IMG/VR virus record: IMGVR_UViG_3300046167_000749
Span: 1 to 63,523 of that record
Length of the DNA stretch: 63,523 bases
Strand: one strand, 5' to 3'
DNA from: a virus
Lineage: Duplodnaviria > Caudoviricetes
Shown: piece by piece, positions 1 through 63,523 of the stretch
Numbering within the stretch: the first letter of the stretch is position 1
How the letters are laid out: the number at the start of each line of letters is the position of its first letter
The notes under the pieces: generated by a model
Told to the model about the DNA's origin: nothing
Databases searched by the model: none
Seen by the model: only the letters and a program-made list of their open reading frames with translations
Made by a program: the position numbers and the translations under genes

Positions 1-933
1 ATTGGGTCTATAAAAGGTTTTTCGAAGAACCATAGGCGTGATATTGATGGCGAGAAAGGTATGGAATGATGATTATTCGACATATCATGTTCCAATTAAG
101 GAAAATGAACATAACTTACCTCCTGGTTATTATGATCGAATAATGGAGGCAGTAAAAAACTGATCCAATTGAAGAAGCTAGAATGGTAAGAGGGGAGTGG
201 ATAGATCGCCCTGCGGGTGATGCTATATTTGGTCCATACTACAATAAGGCACTACACGAAGTTGGGGATTCAAAAACAGGAATCGTTCCAAATACAGAAT
301 TTCCAATTCTTGTTGGATGGGATCCTGGATCTGTAAATAATGCAGTAATATTTATGCAAGCCCTCCCCGGTAGTGATAGAACCATATGGACGGTGTTTGA
401 TGAGTTTGTAACAATAAACAAAAAACTTCCTTACACCACGATAATACCATTAGTAATGAGAAAAATGGCTTATTGGAATTCGCAAGTGCGAGCACGAGTT
501 TACATTTCAACATGTGTCAGATAATTCTGCATTTAATCAATTTAGGGCTAAAACTGGGTCATATGATGTTAAGGACATCGAGGAAATATATAGATCTAAG
601 GGCAGAGACTTTTGATTTACCAACATTTAAAATGAGGGCGTGTCCAAAATTTCAAGGATCGGTTGAGTCTAGGGTGAGACTTACCATAGGAAAACTTCAA
701 AACGATCAGTTTATCGGTAAGCACTCAATGTACAGCAATAGTTAAGATGTTTAAAAATTTAGTTTCAGAAAAACAGGGAAAATCTTACGATCCAAATATT
801 TCATTCAAACCTAAGAGAAGTGTCTATGTACACCCATTTGATGCAATGTCGTATGTGTTCCTTTATTATGATGCATCATTTTCAACTCCCGCCACTCAAG
901 TGAAAACTGAAATCATGGACATTGGGTGCTTGA
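1..933 (+). CDS. terL: Terminase large subunit, C-terminal (RNase H-like nuclease) part; 5' truncated and split by several indels
   Basis: ORF pieces 183-524, 473-745 and 747-986 carry ILVGWDPGSVNNA (nuclease Asp) and VHPFDAMSY (terminal H-x-x-D-A motif). The gene lies upstream of portal/capsid. Removing one G at ~925 gives a stop at 931-933. Confidence 0.8.
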
Positions 934-967
934 TTTTTGTAACACGAAAACATAAGTTTCAGTTATG
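930..967 (+). promoter_or_regulatory. Sigma70-like promoter with TGTAACACGAA box in spacer, likely leaderless
   Basis: TTGATT (930-935), 17 nt, TAAGTT (953-958); ATG at 965; box at 938-948. Confidence 0.55.
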
Positions 968-1222
968 CATATGGAATCAGTTGTAAATATGGACCTAGAA
1001 ATGTTTCCAGATATACTGGATATGTTGGAAGGTGTTAGTGTGGGTGATGTAGTTAAGATCAGCGGATCGTTCCAGGTTAAGGAACTTACGGATAAAAGAT
1101 TTACAGGATCTTTTGAGGACAAAAAGGGGAATTACCATTACCCCACATGAAGATAAAACAGATACGGACGAAGACAAGACCGAAGAATCCGAAGTCGACG
1201 ACGAAGAGGAAGAAACTGCCGG
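965..1222 (+). CDS. Small acidic hypothetical protein (frameshifted near 1125; end approximate)
   Basis: ORF 965-1150; the alternative frame continues as a D/E-rich tail (EDKTDTDEDKTEESEVDDEEEET). Confidence 0.5.
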
Positions 1223-1514
1223 GTGGAATCCTCCTATACAACGTCTGCTTCTATTGCGATTGATGCTCACTATGAGCAGTTAAACATTAAGAGAAGATGG
1301 AATAAAGATAGGGTAGATAGATTATGCGGGTTTTTAAACATAAACTACGGGGAACTTTCCTCCCCTCGTACACGAGAGGCATACCAACTTCCTCAAAAAA
1401 ATATATTCAACAAAATCGTTCGATGGTCCTCTTGCCCTCTTACTAACTATTTTGGAGCACAGGTATCTAAGTAACTACACTAAAGATACCATCAATAATC
1501 TATTTAAATTTTAA
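1223..1514 (+). CDS. Hypothetical protein, possibly HTH-like (frameshifted near 1362)
   Basis: ORF 1223-1474. The repaired frame reads ...LCGFLNINYGELSSLVHERHTNFLKKIYSTKSFDGPLALLLTILE..., with a stop at 1512-1514. Confidence 0.45.
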
Positions 1515-31807: not shown

Positions 31808-34800
31808 ATAACGATCCTAGTAATTCTCATGTTGATTGGTACCGCAGATGGTCAAAGTCGCAAGGTAAGAATGTTGACAATTACACTAATGAAGAGTTAA
31901 CAAACTTTCTTGGTCAGCAGTATGAAAGGAATGGATTTTCCAATGATGAAATCTCTTCTAGCTATGGTAGTGACTTTTCTAATGCATATTTAGATATTAA
32001 AAATAGACCCGATCCAAATCAGGGTTACTTAGATGAATTTTCCTCGGGCATCAAAAGTGCTAGTTATGGATTAGCTAGTACGGGGGTAGGTGCGCTTGGA
32101 TTAGGAGCAGGGGCATTAGGTTTAGACGGGGTTGAAGAATCCCTTATGGGTAAAGCGGCAGACCTATCTGAAAAAGCGGGTCAGGATAAGCCGACCATAG
32201 AGCGTGCAAGTGATGTGCGATGGAGTAATCCGGCAGAGGTTGCAAGGTTTCTTGCTGGGGGCATGGGTGAAGCTACACCATCTGTAGTTGAGTCCGCGGG
32301 AGCATACTTAGCAGGTGGAGGAATAGGATACGGAATAGCAAAGCAACAAGCTAAAAAAGCTATAAGTAAAACTATAGGAGAAAGGTTAGAAGGAAGTGCA
32401 GGAGATGCAGTAGAAGCCTTAATGAGAGAGAGTGTTAAAGCAAATGCCCGAAAAGGTTTTGCCACAGGTTCATTAACAGCAACTGCAGTATCCTCTATTG
32501 GATTAGGGCAGGGTGAGATTTACACATCATTATACGAAAACACTAAACTTGATCCTGATGATAAAGACTACATTGATCCAACAAGGGCAAAGAGTATTGC
32601 CGTTACCTTTGGAGCAGCTTCAGGTGGATTAGATTTTATTGGTGCAGCCACACTACTTGGAAAACTAACAGGAGCACCTAAGGAAGTTGCTAAAAAGTAC
32701 TACAAAAGATTGCTACTTGGATTACCCGAAGGTGTATTTCTTGAGGGTGGTACAGAGGCAACGCAGGAGTTTATAAACATTGCGGCTGAAAAGTTTGGAA
32801 GAGGGCAGGAGCTAGAATTTGACGGACAAGAGTTAAGTAGATTATTTGACGCAGGCGTGCTTGGTGCTGTAGGTGGTGCTCAATTTACAACTATTGGAGC
32901 TATCCGTGGGCCAAAAGATACAGCCGATAATAATGTTGATACAGACGCACCTGTATCTGAAGATCCGACTACATTTAAGCAAAAGAATTTACTTGAGGAC
33001 ATTCAGGAAAAGCGTGGTGAAGATGCACGGTTCCAGCCTGGAGATACTGTGCAAATTGCATTGGGTGGTAAAGGTGTTGTTGATCGAGTAGTTGGTGATA
33101 GTGCAGTCGTAAAAATGGAAGACGGAACACTCAAAACAAATGTTCCTATAGCTTCCTTGTCTTCTCCTATTGAGCAAGATGATCAAGTTGCATCAACTCC
33201 CGAGGCTCCCGAGGATTCAGATGACGAAGAGAGTAACACGAATACTTATGTCACTCCAAGTGGCAAGACGGTACCTAAGCCCACTGCTAGTGTTCCAGTA
33301 ATTGATATTACCATAAATGGTAAAAAGGTAGAAAAGGTTAACGAGAAAGCGGGCAGGGATGCAGAGTTGTTATTCAAGAAAATGGAAGCTCTTGCCAAAA
33401 TTGATGGGGTTGATGGCATGTCCCAAAATACTGCACGAGCAAATAAGACAGGTGGATTTGCAAGTAACTCTAGGGAGCAAATTAAATTAGCTCTTGGTGA
33501 GGATGCTGGATTATATCGAGCTGAAACAAAAGCCATTCTTCGTAAGGCAGGGGTTCTTAATAGTAGTCATGAGTGGATATTGGGCACGAAGTTAGATAAT
33601 GATTTTGATTTAAAGGAAGCTGAAAGGGTCAAGAAGGAGAGGCTTGAGCAATCAAATAAGACGGATTGGATCGAGGTTAATAATAATGTAGAGATCAAAA
33701 GATCAGGCGGGAAAGTAGGTGTGATAAAAGAAATCACATCTGAGGGCATGATTGCTGTGCAAGATGCATCCGGGCAAATAACTGAGTACGAGCCTAATCA
33801 ACTTAAGCCCAAAGCCACACCAAAGGTTAAGCCAAAAGTAAATAAAGAGTTAAGCGATTTATGGAATGAGCGTCAGTCAGATGACTTTTGGGGAGCTAGT
33901 AGTGTTACACAAGAATCAGAAGAAGTACTAACAGAGCCTGAGTTTTTATTTACTAAAGAGAAAGATGAGGAAACAGGGCAGGTTACTTTCGTAGCTAAAG
34001 ACAATTTTGAGTTTAATAAAGATACCAAGGTAAAATTGCTTTGGACGACGGGTAAAAATAAAAAGCAAAGCAAAGAGGTTTCAGCAACTAGCGTAGATGA
34101 ATTATCTAACTCTGTTCGGGATTTCATGAAAGCAAAGCTTAAGACCCAACATGGGGAAAAGTTTGCTAGTACCTTTTTACGGAGTTGAGATAAATGGAAA
34201 AACATACAACGCAAGTATCGAAAAAGGGTTTTACGACATTGCGGGATTAGAGATTGATAGCTCTCAAAGACAGGAACTTGATGCGCAAAAAGGAGATATA
34301 CCATTTCCTATATCGACTATAGAAATCGATGAGGAATCAGGAGATCTCGGAAAAGGAATAGATTCAGAATCAAGAGCACAGGGGAATGCTTTAAAAGAGA
34401 ATATGACTAGGGATGCTAGCACTCTAGTGACCTTGGTTCTTAGGCAACGAAATAACAATGACAACAAGTACCCGCATGACAGTATTCGAGTGGTTACAGC
34501 ACGACTAGGTAGATCGGGTAACCTGACTGTTATAAAAGCCTATAACTCTGATTCGGGAAAGTACATAAGGATAAATGGCACACCTGGTAAAAATACTACA
34601 GCTGACACATTTAATAATGGCAGGGGTTCTTATTATGAAATCATTGGTAAGATAACATCTACAAGTAAGGTTGGTGATGTAGATTTATTCTTTGAAAACA
34701 TAGAAGATTTTTTAGGAAACGAAACGATTTCCAAGGCACTAGAAAATGAAGAGGTAAAAGAAGAAACGGCTAAAGGCACTAAGTTGTCCAAGGAAGCCAA

Positions 34801-37800
34801 AGCTGCGCAAGAAGAGTTAGAAAAACTAGAAGCTGAGCGCGATGAGCTTGACTCAGAAATAGAGGAAAAAAGCAGGCCAGATGACTTTGATCTCCAATTT
34901 GCAAAAGACCGCGTTGAACAGGATAACGATGATGGGTTCATCGAGGGTGACTGGGGAGATGGAGATGAAACCAAGAACACAAGTAGGGCGAAAGATTATT
35001 TATTTTTTGTAGATTTCTCATCAACGGAGAAGGTACTTGAGACCATACCTCCTATGACCGCTCCTGAGGGTGAGTCGGAAGCAATGCGACTTAGGTCTTT
35101 GATCTCAGCATTCGGTCTTGAGTGGACGGGAGGCAGTACAGTTAAGGAAAAGGGTAGTGCTGACCCAAAGAAAATTGCAAGTGCAATGCGTACGATATTT
35201 TCTGAGATAATCAGAGGCGAGGTATCAACGCTCAGAAAGGGAAATAATGCAATTAGACCAGAGCATATTCAGTCGTTTGCTGCTGTGTATATGGAAAACT
35301 TTGAAGCGGGCAAGGATAAGGTACCAACTGCTGCTGTCCCAAGGAAAGCCCATAAGTTTTTAAAGCAGATAGCAGAGATGCAGTCTCCTGATAAGCAAAT
35401 ACAGGAAGTAGCTCAGGATCTTGCCAATGACAGAGTCAGGGAACTAAATGATAAGCGTAGGGAATTATCTCAAAAAATTACAAAACAAAAAGAGGTAGTT
35501 AAGTCATACACTGAAGCAACTATTTCAGAAAAAGATCTTAAAGAATTAGTTGAGTTTAGGAATCGACTTGCCGAACAAGTTGATAAAGGAGAGAAAACGG
35601 CAGACGAAGCAGATAAAATTTATAATGATAAGTATACAAGGGTTATGCCTTTATCCGCTCAACAGCAACCAGGGCAGAAAAATACTCTTGGTGGTAATGC
35701 CCTTGAGATGATCAATAATGATCAGAGAGATGAAAAGGAAGACTTTGTAGATCAAACATTAGAAGATGCGATAGAGGGCGGTGATAGTTCTGAAGTTCAA
35801 GTTAAGGCTGGGAAAGATTCTGTTGCCACTGGTACTACAATAGAGACAGACGAACTTGGTAATAAAGTTGAAGTTCAAGCTGAAGACAAGGGTGATCTAT
35901 CCGATCTTGAGAGCGAAGGTGCGATTAGATTTCAAGACATGTCGCTAGAGGACATGGTCAGCCTAGTTCTTTCCATTAAAAATAAAGCTAGATTTCTGAA
36001 GGTTTTAGAGTCACACATTACTGAAAAAAGAGAGCGAGCTATGGATGGTCGACATGCTGATGTGGTCGATAACTTTATAGCATATCTGTACGAAAGTAAT
36101 GTAGGTAATGCATTCAAAGCTGAGAGGGTAGGTAGTAGTGATTTTATTACTGATTTTTCACAAATAGCGGATGAGAAGAAACTGCCAATGAGGCAGAAAA
36201 TGCAAGAGGTTCTTGAGTTTGCTTCAGATAAAGAACTGATTAGCAAAAAGGGTACAGAGGTAATACGCAAAAGATCTATATATCTTGCGCAGGAAGCGTT
36301 AGCCGGAAATGCAGAGCCATTTCAAATATTCGAGCATGTACTTAATGCAATCGGGCATCATGCAAAATCCGAAGGATACAAAAGATTCTTTAGATTAATG
36401 AATGACTTTGCTGTTACTCCCGTAACTAATGCTAAAAGTTTAGGAATTAAAGATATACTTCCATTGCTCGATCCCGATGGACTATACGATCAAGAGGAGC
36501 TACTTGACGCGTTAAATGAAGTTTATGAGTCGGACTTGAAATTTGAAGAATCGAGTGGAGAACTTCTACTTAGAGATCATTTAAGAAAGCTCGTTAACTC
36601 AAGCTACATTGTAACACAAGAGTCAGCCTCGGCGCTCACTCAATTTCAGGCAAGTAGATTTGATAATGACGGATTAGAGGGTGGGAAGCTAAACTCAGGG
36701 CAACAGCGAATAGATGACTTAGTTGATCCAACAACGGGTGAAGTGACAAAAGACCAAGTGGTAGTAGTAAGTGAGGCTACAAATACAGAGTCTATACAGA
36801 ATGCCAGATCAGCCAAGCAGTCGTATATGTCGGGACCAGATAACCCATTACTCGCTCATCCTGAATTAGTCGAGGAGGGCAGGTCAGCCATGAATGAGTT
36901 TGCCCCCTATGGTATGGATGTGTCATTCGCATTAACAACTGCACTAAATCAGATAAAAAACTCCAAGCTAGGAACAATAGCAAATGTAGCACGATTGTTA
37001 GACAATTCTGTACTGCAAGACTTTACCATTGAGTTCATGTCATGGGACAATTTCCGAAAATATGCCTCCCCTGAAAAAGGAATATTAAACAAGGCGGTTA
37101 TTCTTCATGAGGAAAAAAGAATTATTATATCTGAGGCATTTAATAATTCATACAAGCATTCAGCAAAAGATATGCTTGCGGCCGATATATTACACGAAGC
37201 AGTTCATGCTGTAACACGACCAGCATTAGACCTTGGATTTGCATACTCATCAGGCAGACAGGATTTAATTAATGACATGATCGAGCAACATGGATTGCCC
37301 GAAAAGTACAACATGAATGCTGAGGCATTAGGCAAGGTATGGAATGACATTAGTAATACACTCCTCCCCTACCTTCGAGAGAAAGGAAAGAGCTTAGATA
37401 ATTTTTATGGCTTATCCTCAATTGATGAGTTTTTCTCCGAGCTAGCAAGTGACTCTAAGTTTCAACAGTTCTTGGCAAATACAGAACTGCCCAAGTCAAT
37501 GCGTCCACCAAAATCTAAACTTCGCACAGTATTAGATTATATATTTAATTTGTTAGCTAGGTTAGGTTTTAATACTGCACGCACACCAGATGCATTAACA
37601 TATGCACGAGGAGAGCTTGCGAAATTAACTGAAATAGCAAACCAATCTACCGAATTATCTGAAGAAATAGCTGCGGCTAACTTACGAAACATATCGACAT
37701 TAGCGGCAACATTTAAGAAAACTGACATCAACCTAGATTATTATGATTTACTTGAACGAATTTCACAGGAAACAGCACGAGACGGCACAGGAGGTACTCT

Positions 37801-40800
37801 CGAAGATGCCGCGAGTCACCTTAGAGGAAGCACGTCAGCAAGAGAAGATGATACGGGGAGCAAAATCATCTCGTCGGAAAGGAAAAGGGAGCAAGACGCA
37901 GAAGTCCTCAAGTACGCAGAAGAAAACGGACTCTTAATAAATAACAAAGAGTTTCAGGAAAAACATAAAAAGTATTACGAAAAACAATATGGAATCGGTC
38001 AGTTCCCCGACAGAGATGGTCTCGCAGGTGGATCTGAAAGTGATATATATGTAGACGAAGAGTCCCAAAGGGTGTTCAAGAGAAACACTCTTTCGATCCA
38101 TGGCGGGGATACGGTCGCGTACCTCAATAGGTTAATCATACATAATCTCCTGTTCCCCACGACTGCGTATAAGTTAGAAGGTTTTGTATCTAGGGATACA
38201 GCAAACGCTGACTTAACCGAGGTTTATCAAAGTGTTAATGTAGTTGTATCTCAGCCATACATAAAAGGTGTTAAGGTAACTGAAGATGAAATTGCAAATC
38301 ACATTGCCAGCCTTGGAATAATTCCACGCTTCGACTCCACGCTTGGTAATGACATCAATTTGTCAGACTTAAGGCCAGACAATGCAATAAAGGATGCGGA
38401 TGGCAACATCCACATCATTGATCCGATTATTGAGCAAGAAAGTAGCATGGTAAAGATCCTTGAGGCCAAGCTCGATAAACTAGATGACCCTGGCGACATA
38501 TTGGATACAATCTTTGATTTGTACAATATTCCTGGTTATGTACCCGGTGCTGACATAAAGTTATTAAAGCGTTCGGCTGAAGATGAACTGGGAATAACAG
38601 GGGAAGAGTTAGGCATGAATGCACCCATGAACGCAGTAATGGGTGGTGGCACAGTCCAAGGGAATCAGTTCAAAAACCCAACATCGAACGACTCACCTAG
38701 ACCAGCAAATGCTAGACCTGACGATAATGCATTGGTCATGGCAGAGGCAAATGCGGCGGGATTTAATGAGTTAATAAAAGAACTAGTCAAGGTTCATCGA
38801 GTCTATGGTGAAGAGCTAGGCATGGAACTAGATGAGTTCTTGGAGACATACGGAAAACCGGGAACTACTAGAATAGCAGACATCAAACAACTGCTTGATA
38901 AAGAACTTGCACAGCACGACAAGTCAACTGATGGCATAACCTTAGATAATGCTGGATTAAATAAGATTGCTCGCAGTTGGGGTGTGCGTAAGGCAATAAT
39001 GAACCTTGAGAAGGTTCGTGAAAGAGCACGTAAGGAAGGTAGCCGATCAACAATTCTAGTAGAGGGCATTGAGCAAGATGTTGTTGATAGCAGAAATATA
39101 TATGCCGACCTCTTGCAAGGTAAGTTCCCAACAAGAGATAAGTTATCAGCAAGGGTTAAGAGCAGGTTATCCAATACCAAACTTGAAATACTTGAGGAGT
39201 ATGTAAAGGCGTTACCCAACTCAGGCTTCTCACAAGAGAATTTAAATAACATAAGGAACATGGGTGAAGAGCAACTCATGGGTGTGTTAGATGCAGTAGT
39301 TGATGCAGTAGATCAGAGGGGTAATGGTGAGATCGAGCTTAACTCAAAAGAAGAATTTAATAAACTTTTAGAAACTCTGACCGATGATAGGCTTAAGGTA
39401 ATACAAGGGGATAACCTTAATAAGAAAGCATTAAGGTATGCCGTGTTACGTACAATCAGAGAAAGTAAAGATGTCATGGCTATCCTTCGGTTAAGCAAAG
39501 GGAAGATAGGCACTACTGAAGAAAAATTTAAAGATGCAGCAACTGCAATAGCTAGGGCAAAGTCCAAGGAAGAGATTGATAGAGTAGATATAAAATTCCC
39601 AGGTACTTTATCAACTCCACTCAAACATTTCGCTACTCTTAAAGAGAGAGAGCTTGAGAGTATGGCTAAGTTGCAAAGAGAAAAAGCACGCCAAGAGGTC
39701 AATGGTAAGATCAATAGTATGCTTGAGAATAGAAGCATCAGATTGCGCATGGCGTTAGGTGAATTACAGCCAGTGAATATTTATGATGGTGTAACACTAA
39801 TAACCATGAAGAAGGTTAATGGTGAGTGGGAGCGATCAAACTATAAGGTAGAGATCAAGAACGGTAAGTTCATGGATCGAGATGGATTTGCTAAAGCAAA
39901 TAAAGATACCCTTATGTTTGTCCGAGATCCCGACATGATTAAAAAACATGGACACGAACCTTGGTTCGAGATCATGAGGGAGCAGGCACTAATGGCACTT
40001 ACTGAGCCAATCATGGAAGAGCAGTTCCACATTCAGCGTGCCGCATGGTATGCTGGACTGCAAGGTCTCACCGAAAGGTTTGCAAAGTTAGGTTACGAAG
40101 GAAAGAAGCTATCTCAAATGTCAACTGCTACAGTGGCAACCTACCGGAACTACGCAAGTCAATCGCAAGCATACGCTAAACAATTCAATGCATCCCTTCA
40201 TAGGGTGATGAGTAAACTTAAACTAGGTGGCAATGAAATCTACACGGGTTTATACCAAGACATTTTTTGGTGGTTTGATAATCACCCTGAGTATGCAGGC
40301 AAGGAAGAGGAAGGGTTTAAGCAATTGTGGAAGCACCTAAAGTCTAACGCAAATATACCCGATAGATCATTATTAGACGATGATGCCCGTAGGCTAATTA
40401 TCGATATGGTCAATAAAGCACTTACTGCTAGAGATTGGGAGGCAGAGGTAAATAAAAGGTTAAATAATAGAATACGCGACGAAGATGTTCAAGTTGAGTC
40501 ATTCGTCAATGGCGAGATGGTGGATCTGTATAGACTGCCAATGGATATGGGGTATGCGACATTGCCCAGAAGCCTTAATAATGGATATATTCGTGATACA
40601 TATGCCTTAATGAAAAAGGCTAATTGGCACGGGGATGAAGTAAAAGGTCTATTGGATGAGGCTAGGCAATTAAAGACGCCCGAAGGAATGGAAGATATCT
40701 ATAAGGCGTTATTTAATGATCAAATAGTTGAGCGTTTTGTGAAGCCCTACACCAACTCAGATGTAAGGCAGAGTATATTTCGTGGTCCTAAAGATTCAGA

Positions 40801-43429
40801 GGGAGATATGTTGCCAATGGGTAACTCTTTTGTTGCTACTGCGTTTGAAAGAAGTGGTGGAGATATGTACGCTATGGCTGAATATATTTTCAATCAGCTT
40901 TCAGAAAACACATCGGAGTCAGCACGGGTTCAATGGCAGTATGCCTTCCTGAATCAATTCTTCAAAAGGTTTAGAGAATTAGAAGGTACTGCTAAGAAAA
41001 TATCCAACCAAGTGGATGGTATGCAATCGGGTGATAGCATGAGAAATACACCACAGAGTCTGGATGCACGGGGTGTCGATAATAGACTACCAAAAGAGTT
41101 CTTTTCGTATAATATGTACGATGAAGTTTCATCCAATATTAGGTTGGCACTTATGTCTGCAACCTCTCATTTCGGGAGGAATGGAGATACTGCAAATGCT
41201 GCATTTAGAGATGGCAAACAAACACTAGGCGAAGCGGCTGAGACATTTAATGCAATAATGGCAGAGGCTACTAATAGTGACCACAACAAACCGCAGCACC
41301 ACTACTCTCGATCCGTTAAGCGCAAAGCATATGACATTATGCGAAGGAGAGGCTCAACCAATGCTGAAAAAGAATGGAATGAGCTGTATAGCAAGTCAAT
41401 TGCTAGGGGCGAAATGGATGTAGCTTTTGATCATCTTGGTAAATATTACGGAAAGGGGAATGTGGCGGGACCATATCAAGATGCAAACCTGCTCATGGAT
41501 ATTCTTGGTGTGCAGTCAATGTCTGTATTGAATAACCCTAAGTCATCATTTTTCCAGGCATTATCATTATTCGAGTATCCCAATGCGTTCAGGGGTTTAA
41601 ATAAAATAGCGGGTAAAGCAACAGTAAGTGCTCTTGGTAATTTTGTTGACCAAACATTTGGTGGCATGCTTGAGGCAATGGGTGTTGAGTTAGGCAAAAC
41701 AAGTCGATATGCACAGTACTTAAATGAGACTCACTTTAATCTCAAGGAGATGCAACTTCCCTTCAGTGAGTACAACTCAATGATTGGATCGGGAGGAGAC
41801 CTAGCTGAATCAATTAAGAATCATCCGCAACTAGGGATGAAAAAGTACATTAGGTATATTAAAAATCTCTCAACCCACCACAAGCAGTATAGAAAAGATG
41901 GGACTAGGGCACCTATTGACCCCTTGTCATTGATAACTGGAATCTTTCCGTATGTAAATAATGTGGTGAACCACTCAGTTGGAGTTGGGGCAATACACAC
42001 CTATAGTGACCTAGTGTTACAAGCATCAAAAGTAATACAAGAAAGAGGACTTACTGAGTACACTGAGCTTTCAGCTAAAGATTTAGGCATGGGCAACAAG
42101 ATGGGGGAGTGGATCATTGGTGAAGAAGATGGTTACATAAGAGCGAATGAAATGCTAATTAACTCAGGAGCACCATCAGTATCTCGTTTAGCTTTTGATT
42201 ATTTAGATCGCAAGAAAACAGACAAGCAGGCGCTACCTATTGATGAGAGAATGGGCTTACTGATCAATCAGGCGGCAATGAATAATGTATCGGGTGAGGG
42301 TTTTAACTCTAAGCCATCTGCACTATACACAAATGATTTCCTAAAATACTTCAGCACCTTTTTAGGTTGGCCTCTAGGTAAAATGTCAAGAGACCTAGAC
42401 CAAATCTTTCGTGATCCAAGTGATCGGATCGGAACGATGCGTGCGCTAATGAAGTACATAGGTATGATGTCAGCAGTATATGTTCCGACCGGTCTTTCAT
42501 TTGCAATGCTAATAGATTGGTACGATGAGGAGATGTTAGAAAAGCCTAATAATTTACCTCCTATTTCTCCTTGGGCAGCTCTTCCAGTAATTGGTCCATT
42601 CATCGCGGCTGATGACCCCAACTTCACAGTGTATGCAATCACATCAAGGATGGCTAAAGCAGGTGTACCATTTGGCATGGGTATGGATCTCGCCAATGGG
42701 CTTTTTGCAAAAGGAGACCCCTTCGGTGCGGCTAGAGAGATATCCCTCGATAGTAGGATTTTTGCGTGGTCAATGTTTAAAAATATTTACGATGCCATGG
42801 GAACTTGGGCAACTGCAGGCGAGTTCGATTGGCAAATGGTAGGGAGACCTATCGCCTACGGGGTAGGGGGTAACTCTGTTATACAGATGATGGATCTCAC
42901 GAGTGCTTTATTTGATATAGACTCAGAAGAAAGAAGGGTAGCCAACTACATTGGAATGCGTAATCATATCAAGAAAACTGCATTCTTAATGGGACTTCCA
43001 TTGAGACCCCCCCGTAAAGGTGGGGGAGTGCAGACAGGGGTGTCTATTAATACTAGGCAGATGGCACGCGCCGCGTTTGCTGGAGATAGTGAGTCATTCT
43101 TAGCAAACTACCAAGAAGCATTGGACGCAGCGAAGATATACCTTGATGAAAGAGGTCGCGATGATGACCCTGCGAAGTATGTAGCTGATGCATTTAAAGA
43201 TAGAGCTATTCAAGGCAACATCACTCAAGGAACAATGAAGGATGCTGACTGGCAGAACCTTTTAAATATTCTCGATCCTGAAGTTAAGGGTCAAATTCAA
43301 CAAGCTATTGCTTCTCACGAACACTACTTGAGATTAATTGGTGGCACTCCAAAAGTGTCTCGAGAGAAATCAAATCGTGCAAGGCTAGAAGAGGCACGGC
43401 GATCAAGCGCCCTAATGTATATCCAATAA
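31804..43429 (+). CDS. Giant polyvalent internal virion protein (~3,870 aa if joined at T5 run ~34174-34178) with zincin metallopeptidase-like and Ser/Thr kinase-like domains
   Basis: ORFs 31804-34188 and 34151-43429. N-terminal glycine zippers and EGGTEATQE (ejection-protein motif). ILHEAVHA...DEFFSE zincin. GGSESDIY...VFKRN...HNLLFPTTAYKLEGF...SQPYIKG...DLRPDNAI...IIDP polyvalent-protein kinase. Confidence 0.75.
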
Positions 43430-51023: not shown

Positions 51024-51352
51024 AAATATCTAAAAAAGTCTTTGATGTGCTTACTAATGTGGCGCCCACTCCAAGGGCTCTTACCTTGCTTTAGGTGCTT
51101 AATGAAATCTCGAATAAGTGCAGCTTGCTCGTAATCTTCATACTTAATTGCTTTCTGCATACCTTTCTCGTAGCGGTTGACTTCAGCGGCTTGGGACTTA
51201 CGTTTCCACTCATCCATATACTCCTTTAGTGTCATGCCTTTGAGTGAAGCTAAGTATGTGAAGTGTTTATTGTTTGCTTCTACGAGTCTCTTGCGTGACT
51301 TAATTGGATCGTATCCTTGACTTGGCATAATTATATTTTTACCGGGTTGCAT
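51020..51352 (-). CDS. UVR (UvrB/UvrC-motif) coiled-coil protein
   Basis: MQKAIKYEDYEQAALIRDFIKHL matches the UVR motif consensus. Confidence 0.7.
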   Translation of the reverse strand: MQPGKNIIMPSQGYDPIKSRKRLVEANNKHFTYLASLKGMTLKEYMDEWKRKSQAAEVNRYEKGMQKAIKYEDYEQAALIRDFIKHLKQGKSPWSGRHISKHIKDFFRYL

Positions 51353-52005
51353 ATTCCTTCATCTGTATCAAAGAATACGCCCCGAACCTTTAGGCTCTCC
51401 CACCTCAGCAGGCGCCAAATAAGGTTCAGGGCGTTTATAGCAACCACACTATTAACAAATAGATCTTGCACGAAGTATTCATCTACGCATCCAACCTCAC
51501 CTACCGGTTCCTCTCCGTAGATCAAGTCGTTGTGCTCGTCATATACATTAGGTAAGTCTCCGTCGAATTGACCGATCAAGACTTGTCCTGATGTGCGTGA
51601 ATTGCCACAATCAATCATGTAGGCTCCCTTAGTAAGCCATGACTTAGCTATATCTTCACGAGACTTAATAGTATCTACGCACGAAACAATCATATCATCT
51701 TTTGATGATGAAGGTGCTTTTACTGTGCGATACTTCCAGTTTAGTTGGTAGTACGCATTTACTCTATCGATCAGAATCTTGGCTTTATTGTGGCCAACAT
51801 CTGATGGGAAGAATGCCTGCCTGCCAATATTAGCAGGAGATACCGTGTCAAAGTCATAAGCTGTGACATATATCTCAGGCTTCCTTCTTTGTTTTTGAGC
51901 ATGATTAATACGGGCAAGTCCATTAATCATCTGACTGCCTGTACCACCACACCCATATACGGATATGTTTCTTATATTTTTCTTTAATCTATGCATTGTA
52001 TCCAT
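51331..52005 (-). CDS. PRTRC system ThiF/E1-like activating enzyme
   Basis: GCGGTGSQ, LARINHA, DFDTVSPANIGRQ.F..SDVG.NKA, SCVD, DCGN..SGQV, and C...QDLFVN. Confidence 0.9.
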   Translation of the reverse strand: MDTMHRLKKNIRNISVYGCGGTGSQMINGLARINHAQKQRRKPEIYVTAYDFDTVSPANIGRQAFFPSDVGHNKAKILIDRVNAYYQLNWKYRTVKAPSSSKDDMIVSCVDTIKSREDIAKSWLTKGAYMIDCGNSRTSGQVLIGQFDGDLPNVYDEHNDLIYGEEPVGEVGCVDEYFVQDLFVNSVVAINALNLIWRLLRWESLKVRGVFFDTDEGICNPVKI

Positions 52006-52607
52006 TCTGTAAGTGTTTTGTTAATTTCCTTAAGGTGGTTGCGCCTCTTGGGTTGGTAGTTAAATCCGCTATTGAAGAATGTTCTCTCCCACTCCTCCCA
52101 ACAATGCCAGGGAAGTGAGTATGCGAACTCAGGATTGTTTAGTGTTACATTGCATGATCCCATTGCAGATGAACCTCCATGCACATCAATACTTCGATAG
52201 GGCAACTCTAGTAGCTTTGTTGAATCTGCGGAGTATGAATCAGTATTCGACCGATCAAAGTCAATCGGCAGGACAGCAACACTAAGCGTGTCATGCCCGT
52301 GACTTCTTGTTACTTTGAATACTAGATGTGGATGACTGTAAACCCCTACCTTATTCTTAACTTTAATTGGTCGTCGAGCGGGTTTGCATGTCCATATCAT
52401 GCACAAGTTTTCTTCATACCATAGCATCTGTGGTGGCAAGACTATCGGTTCTGATGCTTGCCCTTCTACTAGATCCTTCATATCTTCAGATGATAATGGT
52501 CGTGGGTTTACCCATTCCTCATCTTTCTTATCGAATAGTACGCACATCGATCTACTTCTATCTCGGTAAACCATTATGCTTTGCTTCGCTTCAATTAAGT
52601 CTGTCAT
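51984..52607 (-). CDS. PRTRC system protein B (prokaryotic E2 family D-like)
   Basis: PRPLS; LPPQMLW...MIW..KPARRPI; PHLVFKV; TKL..LPY; AMGS; WERTFFNSGF; adjacent to ThiF. Confidence 0.75.
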   Translation of the reverse strand: MTDLIEAKQSIMVYRDRSRSMCVLFDKKDEEWVNPRPLSSEDMKDLVEGQASEPIVLPPQMLWYEENLCMIWTCKPARRPIKVKNKVGVYSHPHLVFKVTRSHGHDTLSVAVLPIDFDRSNTDSYSADSTKLLELPYRSIDVHGGSSAMGSCNVTLNNPEFAYSLPWHCWEEWERTFFNSGFNYQPKRRNHLKEINKTLTEWIQCID

Positions 52608-61600: not shown

Positions 61601-61661
61601 TGTTATGATTTAGTGGAGGATATGTATTTATGCTTTTGTTCGTGGGGGTCGTGATAGCAGA

Positions 61662-62069
61662 TTACTTGGTGCGTGCGATGAACACGCGACCTTCTGCTGA
61701 TAATGTACCACCATGTATATCCATAAGGATATTAGCTGCTTGCTCGAAGTCGCGCTTCATGTCGCCCTTCTGGTCGTTCCAGAATCGTAGCTTAGCACTA
61801 CGCCTTGCATCCATATCTTTACTAAATGCATAGGCATCTAATGCCATAGCTAACTTAGGGGCCACTGCCCCAATTCTATTAATATCTTCATTCCATAGCA
61901 TAAGGGTCAATCCCTTAAAGCTAACCTCACGACCTGTGCGATATGTGCGACCAAGTCGCTTACGCTTAGGGTGAAACTTCGCACGATGTGTACGACCAAG
62001 TGCTTTTTGTTTTTGTCGATCGCTTGCTTGTGATTTTCCGTCACGAATAGATTGAGTAATAAAGTGCAT
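61662..62069 (-). CDS. Hypothetical basic protein
   Basis: 135-aa ORF with an R/K-rich N-terminus. Confidence 0.6.
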   Translation of the reverse strand: MHFITQSIRDGKSQASDRQKQKALGRTHRAKFHPKRKRLGRTYRTGREVSFKGLTLMLWNEDINRIGAVAPKLAMALDAYAFSKDMDARRSAKLRFWNDQKGDMKRDFEQAANILMDIHGGTLSAEGRVFIARTK

Positions 62070-62092
62070 GATATAATAAAGTTATGGTGAAT

Positions 62093-62127
62093 AAAAAAGG
62101 GTGTGAGGAATTAACCCCACACCCTTT
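62093..62127 (-). terminator. Rho-independent terminator
   Basis: Minus strand AAAGGGTGTGGGG-TTAATT-CCTCACACCCTTT, continuing into a T-tract; GU pair on the minus strand. Confidence 0.8.
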
Positions 62128-62146
62128 GGAGTGAATAACGAATTGA

Positions 62147-62614
62147 CTACCAAGAAACAGAGCGAGTAACTTCGCCTGTCTTTTTACTAGGTAATGATTG
62201 CTTGAAGCTCTTCAGCTCAGCCTCATCGATTTGAGCCGTGAGGTTAGCCTTGAACTCATCTGAGTTAATCTCAGTAACATGAGCGAGCTGAGCGATTTTC
62301 TTTAGCTCCTTTTGATCATCCGATAGACGAAAGCCACCTGCCTTATTGAGATTGCTTGACTCCTCACATTGTACACCTGTGATCACGCTATTCTGTATAG
62401 CTGTGAAGGTATCTTGATCCTTGAGGATCGGTAGAGAAGCAACTGCTAATTTCTGTAAGCGATTAGCTTCAGTACGATTAGCATCAGCCTCAGCGAAATA
62501 ATCCCTCGCTACAGGAGCAGGAGCAGGAGCTACAGCAGGAGCTGTAAACGTAGCTAAAGCTTTAGCGATTTCTTGTGCGATGATTGCTTGGATGTTGTTA
62601 TTTTCAATTGTCAT
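62147..62614 (-). CDS. Hypothetical protein, first gene of the early arm, monocistronic
   Basis: 155 aa with an AP-rich linker, followed by its own terminator. Confidence 0.7.
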   Translation of the reverse strand: MTIENNNIQAIIAQEIAKALATFTAPAVAPAPAPVARDYFAEADANRTEANRLQKLAVASLPILKDQDTFTAIQNSVITGVQCEESSNLNKAGGFRLSDDQKELKKIAQLAHVTEINSDEFKANLTAQIDEAELKSFKQSLPSKKTGEVTRSVSW

Positions 62615-62639
62615 AATATATTTATTTTATGTGGTTATA

Positions 62640-63440
62640 GTTCTCTCACTTTTTACACGGGCTTGAGACCGACACAGAATTGTGGCAAGTTTAAACTATT
62701 GGTATAGACACTGAGCACCGATCCCCTTTTCTTAATGTGATTTTTATAATGTGGTTGCTCTATATCAGATGATACTGACTATGTGGCATAAGAGTATTAC
62801 ACGAAATAATGGTAAGACGAATGAAGATCATAAGATCTCCCAAGTGATTTGACGATCAAGTCAATGCTCACACTTGTTACGCTCGCTAACTAACCTTAGC
62901 GATATTCGGAACGGATTGTTTTATTGAAGTAAAAAAAGACTATTTAAAGTAAACAGATATTCTTCAGCCGTCATTCTTAGCAACCGCAACCTTGTCATGG
63001 TCTTTAGGTAGGATCAAATTGAAACCTTATGGTAAACGATCAATTCAAGTCGCCTCGAATTGAATAAGCCAATTGTATCTGTTTTCTTTTACTTACAAGT
63101 CTCAGAGGAATCGCAGACCGAATACTCGGACATCTTTTACTGCGTTATCCCATTTATCCTAGTGTCCCTTTAGACTTACCCTAGTTATGCTTTCCCTTTT
63201 CGGGCTTAGCTGAGACGATCTTTTTGGTCATTACCCTTCATGGGTTAGGCGATCAACCTTGCCGAACTTAGTTATCGGTCTTGGAACTTGCCTCGATTAA
63301 GTCGGGGACTTTGTCGGATTTACTCATCTTTCCTTGATGCTTAGATTACGAACTCTATTTAGATCGCCTTGCCGTCTGAATCACGCTGATCAACTGACGC
63401 CGTCAAGCTGACACATACCGATCCCACGGGAAATCAACGA
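62640..63440 (-). ncRNA. Candidate large structured non-coding RNA
   Basis: No ORF of 60 aa or more in 900 bp; many stems, including TCAATTCGAG-GCGA-CTTGAATTGA (GNRA loop, GU pair on the minus strand). Confidence 0.45.
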
Positions 63441-63453
63441 CTTAGGACATCTC

Positions 63454-63496
63454 TGTAACACTACTAGTATTGTGTTACACCCCCCCCCTTGGGGGG
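63454..63496. repeat. Palindromic TGTAACAC-N10-GTGTTACA operator-like site followed by C9-TT-G6
   Basis: TGTAACAC (63454-63461), TACTAGTATT, GTGTTACA (63472-63479). Confidence 0.7.
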
Positions 63497-63523
63497 TTTG
63501 GGCAGATGCCGGAGAGCATATAT

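Follow-up and report, generated by a model that had tools for sequence, protein, structure and literature searches.

What occupies the gene-free end of the phage record IMGVR_UViG_3300046167_000749, and does it encode a large structured RNA, as the original prediction proposed? The window, which is the whole IMG/VR virus record of 63.5 kb (linear; rated 81% complete), is from an uncultured marine phage, and the public runs containing the flagged stretch carry the labels seawater, marine, estuary, or viral metagenome; the 17 DNA runs among them include X15–X17, which contain only a small share of it. The plus-strand arm (about 1–44 kb) contains tail-fibre and virion genes. The minus-strand arm (45–62.6 kb) encodes an integrase, a helicase, ThiF- and E2-like proteins, and many small open reading frames (ORFs) without a family. 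The flagged region comprises the final 900 bases of the window, just past minus-arm gene 1 (62147–62614). We found that its gene-proximal end is a twister ribozyme, that its distal end is a family-wide DNA element at which the arms diverge, and that the body between them is non-coding. On balance, the stretch is probably a long untranslated leader or control region heading the minus arm, which would be cut by the twister 78 nt before the first start codon. Its parts are arranged as follows.

62147–62614, minus strand: gene 1 of the leftward arm, encoding 155 aa that belong to no known family, with its ATG at 62614–62612
62615–62638, minus strand: A/U-rich spacer of 24 nt from the ribozyme to the start codon, without a Shine-Dalgarno-like run
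62639–62697, minus strand: predicted type-P1 twister self-cleaving ribozyme (Rfam RF03160, 52 bits), whose pairing covaries in relatives
62698–63422, minus strand: non-coding body of the presumed leader, about 725 nt, with no ORF kept except one of 16 aa
63423–63523, no strand assigned: left part of a family-wide DNA element, 100% identical to contig L170

The region was compared with several related contigs. L170, L175, and L180 (the L170 group) are independently assembled metagenome contigs that are almost identical to each other, and they match window positions 62000–63523 over the full length with about 85.6% identity. The more distant L177 matches 62736–63523 with 79.6% identity and ends there, while L171 and L173 match the window at 62481–62694 only. 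The helicase, used as a probe, retrieved five related IMG/VR records.

The segment at 62639–62697, which lies at the edge of the flagged range and was missed by the original prediction, matches RF03160 with 52.0 bits (E 2.3e-10 in a 1.5-kb search and 9.7e-9 over the whole window). This is the sole Rfam match at E ≤ 0.01 in the 63.5-kb window. The score is below the gathering cut-off of 67.2 bits, which is a convention of the library and not a structural feature, and the alignment attributes the loss to a short P3 and variable stem positions. The conserved UAA, GCC, L4 loop, UAAA, and GAG blocks are present. Twisters also occupy the homologous position in L180 (50.1 bits), L172 (46.5 bits), and L173 (38.8 bits). 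The four sequences were cut into P1-type elements and their pairing was compared. P1, P2, and P4 appear in the P1-type order with standard pairs in all four, except for a U·U at the base of P4 in the window, and all three stems covary. P2 reads ACUU/AAGU, AGCU/AGCU, UGCA/UGCA, and AGUA/UACU in the four twisters, and the closing pair of P3 is standard in each. The pseudoknot between L4 and the 3′ strand of L1 forms three of three pairs in every sequence, with a middle pair of U-A, A-U, U-A, or G-C. The L2–L4 pseudoknot likewise forms two of two pairs in every sequence, of the types G-C/C-G, A-U/C-G, and G-C/G-C. The core nucleotides (UAA, the AA of L4, and GA-GNG) are present in 4/4. The twister is 76.3% identical to that of L170, the lowest value among the conserved segments compared. 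The least conserved sequence thus coincides with the best conserved pairing, which is the signature of selection on RNA structure. Judged from its sequence and covariation, 62639–62697 is a genuine type-P1 twister.

Cleavage is predicted between 62693 (U) and 62692 (A), a site that lies 78 nt ahead of the first start codon. From the numbering in PMC6154101, the general-base G probably lies among the GA purines before the L1 pseudoknot strand. From the end of the ribozyme to the first start codon there are 24 nt in the window, L180, and L173, and 9 nt in L172. The order of elements is that of known type-P1 twisters, namely P1, UAA holding the U-A cut site, P2, a junction of three bases, a short P3, P4 capped by the UCNCAAGC loop, UAAA, P2′, GAGNG, and P1′. 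The pairing of L4 with L1 and L2 and the U-A cut site correspond to the architecture that PMC6154101 describes from crystal structures, and the site beside phage genes and just before an ORF corresponds to what PMC6765202 describes. According to PMC11662667, imperfections are tolerated in twister stems but not in the pseudoknots. The window twister differs from known ones in its P3 of only 3–4 bp, in the U-A middle pair of the L1–L4 pseudoknot (C-G in the consensus), and in the roughly 750 nt of ORF-free sequence ahead of it, where a short intergenic gap is usual. A complementarity of 12 of 14 positions between the 5′ half of the twister and 63285–63298 is not kept in L170 and was taken as chance. 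Separately, a 217-nt seawater contig (run X1, record 6) shares only 62643–62693 with the window, with 6 differences in 51 nt and unlike flanks. Because the twister core alone is shared, this contig points to a similar twister in another genome of that sample.

The position of the ribozyme was then set against phage twisters in general. A degenerate L4-core pattern matched at least 115 IMG/VR stretches, and a regular expression with pairing checks yielded 76 P1-type twisters in 65 of 115 loci among the matches listed; the sample reflects one exact core pattern, and its ORFs are purely mechanical. Four of the 76 have no downstream ORF to measure and three have no upstream ORF end. Among the matches listed, a same-strand ORF starts at most 40 nt downstream of 30/72 P1 twisters, compared with 10/72 in the mirrored control, and so the position before an ORF is typical of phage twisters. 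The ORF-free distance upstream has a median of 20 nt and reaches at least 300 nt in only 5/73 of those matches, and hence the long gene-free run is atypical.

A second ribozyme class occurs in the same family. In G002, a relative rated 100% complete, a pistol ribozyme (RF02679; 45.9 bits against a cut-off of 34.5) lies at L007 250–324 on the minus strand, equivalent to L015 5132–5206. It overlaps the end of gene 1, including the stop codon, and leaves 21 nt to the start of gene 2. Within one phage family, therefore, some members have a twister in the minus arm and another has a pistol, in each case some 20 nt ahead of a start codon, although the window itself has no pistol. Different classes of self-cleaving ribozymes are described as clustering near phage genes (PMC6154101, PMC6765202). 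Self-cleaving ribozymes of changing class are a recurrent, non-fixed feature of this minus arm.

At the other end of the stretch, the window contains AATCAACGACTTAGG, a palindrome TGTAACAC-N10-GTGTTACA (63454–63479), a C9-TT-G6 hairpin (63480–63496), and GCATATAT, after which the contig ends. The family-wide form of this element consists of AATCA..TTAGG, the palindrome, a C8-9/G6-7 hairpin with a variable 2–4-nt loop, about 20 variable bases, and ATATATACCC.TTTTCTC.AGTTTCC. It spans about 110–150 nt and continues past the contig end in L170 (3631–3830) and L015 (6383–6710). In blastn comparisons with the helicase-defined relatives, only 63423–63496 of the region is conserved. A C/G-hairpin pattern search of IMG/VR recovered the element in 11 of 36 matches, and a pattern for the window's subgroup recovered it in 14 metagenome contigs; one contig of a genome collection has it too. 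The two arms of the palindrome change together between subgroups. In G002, the element sits in roughly 930 nt without genes, bounded by the first minus-strand gene on one side and a plus-strand gene on the other. Ahead of the start codon of that plus-strand gene lies a TTGACA-17-TAAATT promoter, and a second palindrome that has the same half-site overlaps this promoter. In relatives, the half-site GTAACAC thus recurs over the plus-arm promoter, and the two palindromes vary in step between subgroups (GTAACAC versus GTTACTA), which looks like a putative operator pair for one dimeric repressor. The layout of G002, together with the ending of the window contig inside the element, indicates that the flagged stretch lies in a divergent intergenic region and not at a genome terminus.

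Several further observations concern the element. A scan of a genome collection for it, in search of a prophage or host, returned one contig and one chance match and did not reveal the host. The contig is L184 (29.9 kb, with the element at 2089–2144), from a genome bin labelled 'uncultured archaeon'; L184 is probably a phage contig binned by mistake and is uninformative on the host. In the other subgroup of the family, a plus-strand tRNA gene (74 bits) lies at most about 100 nt past the element (L008 1680–1752, plus strand; also L016, L021, L038, and L043). A possible −10 box in the palindrome spacer on the minus strand was rejected, as its TA..TA belongs to the palindrome and no −35 box accompanies it. 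The window also encodes a 3092-aa ORF (34151–43429, plus strand) with a Kinase-PolyVal domain at residues 1249–1428 (E 1e-17), that is, a 'polyvalent protein'. The idea that this protein is a virion RNA polymerase reading the C/G hairpin as a promoter is unsupported: it has the Kinase-PolyVal domain, no PHROG family, and no sequence match in the PDB.

The body of the flagged stretch is non-coding. The original prediction had described 62615–63523 as free of ORFs, and we confirmed this, as no ORF of at least 45 aa is present. The longest ORFs comprise 44 aa (62573–62707, plus strand, beginning within gene 1), 43 aa (63390–63521, minus strand, open-ended), and 37 aa. With TGA read as W, no ORF exceeds 86 aa; with TAG read as Q, a single frame of 109 aa appears, containing five read-through codons. 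Among ORFs of at least 15 codons on both strands, only one, of 16 aa, is intact across three lineages, and its substitutions are non-synonymous while a hairpin is kept. Minus-strand ORFs of 79–127 aa occur beside the element in the other subgroup (L019, L021, L017, L033, and L043). They are rich in Arg, Ser, and Thr, look non-genic, and have no counterpart in the window; three of them share 38–48% identity, and the small ORF of L021 may be real.

Within the body, the original prediction had listed six stems, one of them a long-range pair, all of which are present where it placed them. These and further hairpins are listed below.

62823–62840, minus strand: small hairpin AGATC/GATCT, cleanly deleted (17 nt) in the L170 group
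62841–62846/62871–62876, minus strand: hairpin with outer stem CAAGTG/CACTTG and inner stem TTGAC/GTCAA, the outer stem invariant in all rows
62883–62889/62896–62902, minus strand: 7-bp hairpin TCGCTAA/TTAGCGA, one pair changed on both sides in the L170 group and still paired
63041–63049/63054–63062, minus strand: 9-bp hairpin with the GNRA tetraloop GCGA on the minus strand, GUGA in the L170 group
63118–63121/63126–63129, minus strand: 4-bp hairpin CCGA/UCGG, in which both bases of the window's closing pair differ from those in the L170 group and L177 and pairing is kept
63194–63196/63202–63204, minus strand: hairpin CCC-GAAAA-GGG, the middle C-G changed to U-A in L177
63247–63254/63362–63369: long-range helix of the original prediction, with a C·A mismatch in the L170 group
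63394–63407, minus strand: 5-bp hairpin of the CUGAC/GUCAG type, two pairs changed on both sides in L177 and still paired (alignment columns 119/129 and 121/127)

The significance given to these stems holds in part. Several small hairpins keep their pairing through changes, but only 3 of the 37 pairs in the predicted stems show pair-keeping changes on both sides in relatives. The CAAGTG/CACTTG stem is uninformative because it is invariant, and the long-range pair, though present in the window, carries a mismatch in the L170 group. The hairpin at 63041–63062 carries information about the strand. In the L170 group, its loop changes from GCGA to GUGA, which keeps the GNRA form, and an A-U pair becomes G·U, which on the plus strand would be an A·C mismatch; the changes therefore fit the minus strand only. 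This hairpin is absent in L177, in which the central 160 nt of the body (62929–63088) are replaced. The minus strand was also claimed to be rich in purines in its loops. It contains 54% purines in the stretch, which is not special because the minus-arm genes show 55.5%. The minus strand nevertheless remains the most likely one for a transcript, given the changes in the hairpin and a purine content matching that of the minus-arm genes.

The conservation of the body is real but not exceptional. It is 89.5% identical to L170 over 62698–63422 and 93.3% identical over 62900–63422, whereas patches elsewhere in the minus arm of this mosaic pair are 96–99% identical. The blocks 62736–62928 and 63089–63270 are nearly unchanged in L177. 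Homologues of the body were found only in L170, L175, L180, and L177, which are near-identical or close contigs, and a profile of the body, run against the other 20 family loci, picked up the element and the twister alone. In the window's subgroup, 331–913 nt of unrelated sequence separate the element from the first minus-strand ORF of at least 80 aa. A DNA search of the flagged region against 50,697 GenBank phage records gave no match, as did exact 21-nt pieces of the twister and of the two conserved body blocks in IMG/VR. Direct repeats in the body are 9–21 nt long, in two imperfect copies, and no iterons or long repeats were found in it.

The folding energy of the whole region is ordinary. 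On the minus strand, the minimum free energy (MFE) of −231.9 kcal/mol (z −1.56) is equalled by 1 of 20 shuffles; on the plus strand, the value is −231.2 kcal/mol (z −1.37), equalled by 2 of 20. A consensus-structure z was calculated from the folding energy in 120-nt windows against column shuffles. It ranges from +1.3 to −2.5, is mostly above −2, and is about equal on both strands. Values of −2.1 to −2.5 were obtained over three windows spanning 63324–63523, and −2.31 at 62810–62929; elsewhere the minus strand gives −2.0 to +1.2, and the plus strand is similar. RNAalifold predicted 225 pairs from the five-row alignment, of which 16 show pair-keeping changes on both sides. Covariation is thus seen in a few small hairpins and in the twister, but relatives preserve the fold computed from the window sequence alone no better than expected: one-sided changes keep versus break its pairs in 13 versus 15 cases in L170 and in 12 versus 29 in L177, and the plus strand is only slightly worse in this count. 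Judged from the alignment, the body appears to hold several small selected hairpins and no conserved large RNA fold.

These results do not bear out the proposal of a large RNA of the GOLLD or ROOL kind. The region shares with GOLLD, ROOL, and other large bacterial and phage RNAs a size class of about 600–800 nt, a phage setting, and the lack of coding capacity. It differs in having no covariance-model match, no unusual folding energy, and no tRNA gene (none was found in the window), and it has neither a conserved multi-domain structure nor relatives other than close strains. Covariance models of GOLLD, ROOL, HEARO, and OLE gave no match in 62000–63523 even at E ≤ 10, and no Rfam family matched anywhere in the window at gathering thresholds. 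A large RNA gene of this kind was accordingly rejected on the missing Rfam match, the MFE z-scores of −1.56 and −1.37, and the confinement of the body to four close contigs. The original prediction had further suggested that the RNA could be new. Nothing shows a new RNA class, and the edge of the flagged range holds a twister, a known one.

How, then, would such a stretch work? In the interpretation that we favour, the minus arm would be transcribed from a start at or near the conserved element through a leader of roughly 750 nt, and the twister would cut this RNA between 62693 and 62692. Cutting would free the leader with a 2′,3′-cyclic phosphate end and leave the gene-1 mRNA with a 5′-hydroxyl and a 78-nt 5′ untranslated region that begins with the folded ribozyme body. 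Without recourse to host RNases, such a cut would set the 5′ end of the mRNA and probably also its stability and translation. The hairpins of the body may act as local stability or processing signals or as binding sites, with fast turnover between relatives. No strong terminator was found between the element and the twister. Contigs from an RNA library (run X19) cover 63015–63196 with 0 differences, and contigs from a library of uncertain kind (X7) cover 62720–62865 and 62920–63247, also with 0 differences; they give a weak hint that the body is transcribed. In a further RNA run (X18), contigs lie on 61651–62431 only and none on the leader, but a lack of contig cover is uninformative.

The early leader of phage T7 offers a comparison. 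At one end of the T7 genome, roughly 900 bp are free of genes and carry the host promoters A1–A3, with an RNase III site just before gene 0.3. The cut by the twister may play a role like that of this RNase III site. In both systems, a long gene-free leader heads an arm and the first start codon follows an RNA processing site by a few tens of nt, and relative G002 has a further processing site, the pistol, before the next gene. They differ in that the window has a self-cleaving ribozyme in place of host RNase III and no sequence relation to T7, and in that no tandem sigma-70-type promoters were found here, where sigma-70 may not be the host's type.

Several results weigh against the interpretation as a cleaved leader. 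No minus-strand promoter was found in the region. It contains five sigma-70-like matches against 3.4 ± 2.0 in shuffles, which is the chance level for a consensus that may not be the host's, and no match on the minus strand is kept in L170; on the plus strand, by contrast, relatives have a strong promoter of the TTGACA-17-TAATAT type some 100 nt rightward of the element. The transcript of the minus arm could consequently start close to the ribozyme. The RNA-library contigs reveal neither strand nor ends and could derive from carried-over DNA, and their runs came from a search that used this very stretch as the query. The twister scores under the Rfam gathering cut-off (52 versus 67.2 bits), and no twister was detected at E ≤ 1 in the records of 13 IMG/VR relatives (0/13), so that the leader of this family does not invariably include the ribozyme. 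A leader of 750 nt is also unusual among phage twisters.

The missing minus-strand promoter upstream of the body would also suit a region that acts mainly as DNA, with regulator sites, a replication origin, or a packaging signal between the divergent arms and little or no transcription. The location between those arms next to the family-wide element, the GTAACAC half-site over the plus-arm promoter of relatives, the integrase of the phage, and the near-equality of the consensus-structure scores on both strands are consistent with this possibility. We nevertheless consider it doubtful, since the twister requires a transcript that starts upstream of 62697, the changes in one hairpin fit pairing in minus-strand RNA only, contigs from the RNA library (X19) and the uncertain library (X7) lie on 62720–63247, iterons and long repeats are absent from the body, and the body sequence, unlike the element, is not conserved across the family. 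The hairpins could alternatively be modules of a fast-evolving, functional long non-coding RNA of roughly 750 nt that is released by the twister and has a ribozyme-made 3′ end, a weaker version of what the original prediction proposed. The body is better conserved with respect to the L170 group than gene 1 is (89.5%, or 93.3% over 62900–63422, versus 81.2%), two blocks persist in L177, at least five small hairpins keep pairs through changes on both sides (16 of 225 pairs in RNAalifold), the GNRA loop is preserved, and an ORF-free run of at least 300 nt ahead of a twister is rare (5/73 among the matches listed). Yet a selected RNA of this length is hard to reconcile with MFE z-scores of −1.56 and −1.37, with mid-body consensus-structure values of −1.5 to +1.2, and with pairs that are broken as often as or more often than they are kept. 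The limitation of homologues to four close contigs, the unrelated spacers of other relatives, the 96–99% identity of other arm patches, and the replacement of the central 160 nt in L177 point the same way, and this explanation is unlikely. Somewhat less likely still is the specific idea that the twister, beyond trimming an mRNA, makes the 3′ end of a free RNA of about 750 nt, which the phage family would produce from its divergent control region and which would have a function of its own, for instance as a sponge or decoy that targets a host factor or defence system. Such a function, if true, would account for the retention, in relatives, of a long spacer that is free of genes yet changes in sequence.

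A decayed or frameshifted protein gene, or assembly errors at a contig end, would account for the missing ORFs in another way. The stretch does occupy one end of a linear contig whose completeness is rated 81%, and the first 1.5 kb of the window also contain only short overlapping ORFs. However, L170, L175, and L180 match the stretch over its full length, and it is therefore not a contig-end artefact. These independent assemblies carry the same ORF-free sequence and differ by non-triplet indels (those relative to the window are of 1, 2, 3, 4, and 17 nt), no ORF of at least 17 aa is intact across three lineages, and alternative readings of the stop codons are unconvincing. Relatives show that the contig simply ends within a conserved intergenic element. 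The broken gene or contig-end error, named in the original prediction as what would refute it, was found in neither form, and we regard this explanation as highly improbable.

Downstream of the presumed leader, the protein of gene 1 belongs to no PHROG family and has no usable Atlas match, and Pfam gives only a sub-threshold Exc-like match; used as a probe in IMG/VR, gene 1 found no relatives. It is 81.2% identical to its L170 counterpart at the nucleotide level, with one 9-nt in-frame indel, and gene 2 is 90.2% identical. High contig depth at 62445–62614 reflects 30-nt matches to the GCAGGAGC repeat. One further feature follows gene 1.

62096–62127, minus strand: strong intrinsic-terminator-like hairpin of 13 bp followed by a T run, immediately downstream of gene 1

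The spacer between genes 1 and 2 (62070–62146) is only 44% identical to L170 despite the conserved flanking genes, and it may be a swapped intercistronic module at the place of the G002 pistol. Elsewhere in the minus arm, adjoining genes of the ThiF family (E1-like) and of prokaryotic E2 family D (51331–52607, minus strand) form a ubiquitin-like conjugation pair in a phage. At the opposite end of the window (1–1500), only short overlapping plus-strand ORFs are present (183–524 and 473–745) without a Pfam match; they may represent a frameshifted or truncated gene at the contig end.

The twister class is well known, and a new RNA class is not shown; the long leader is what is unusual among phage twisters. 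In four lineages, a ribozyme lies 9–24 nt before the first start codon of a phage arm, with textbook covariation in both pseudoknots. The biological role of genomic twisters is described in PMC6765202 as largely unknown, and the same paper notes that bacterial twisters and hammerheads lie near phage genes and mentions a proposed role for them in processing polycistronic mRNAs. The twister of the window, together with the pistol before the next gene in a sister phage, supports the view that self-cleaving RNAs serve as host-independent processing sites in phage mRNAs.

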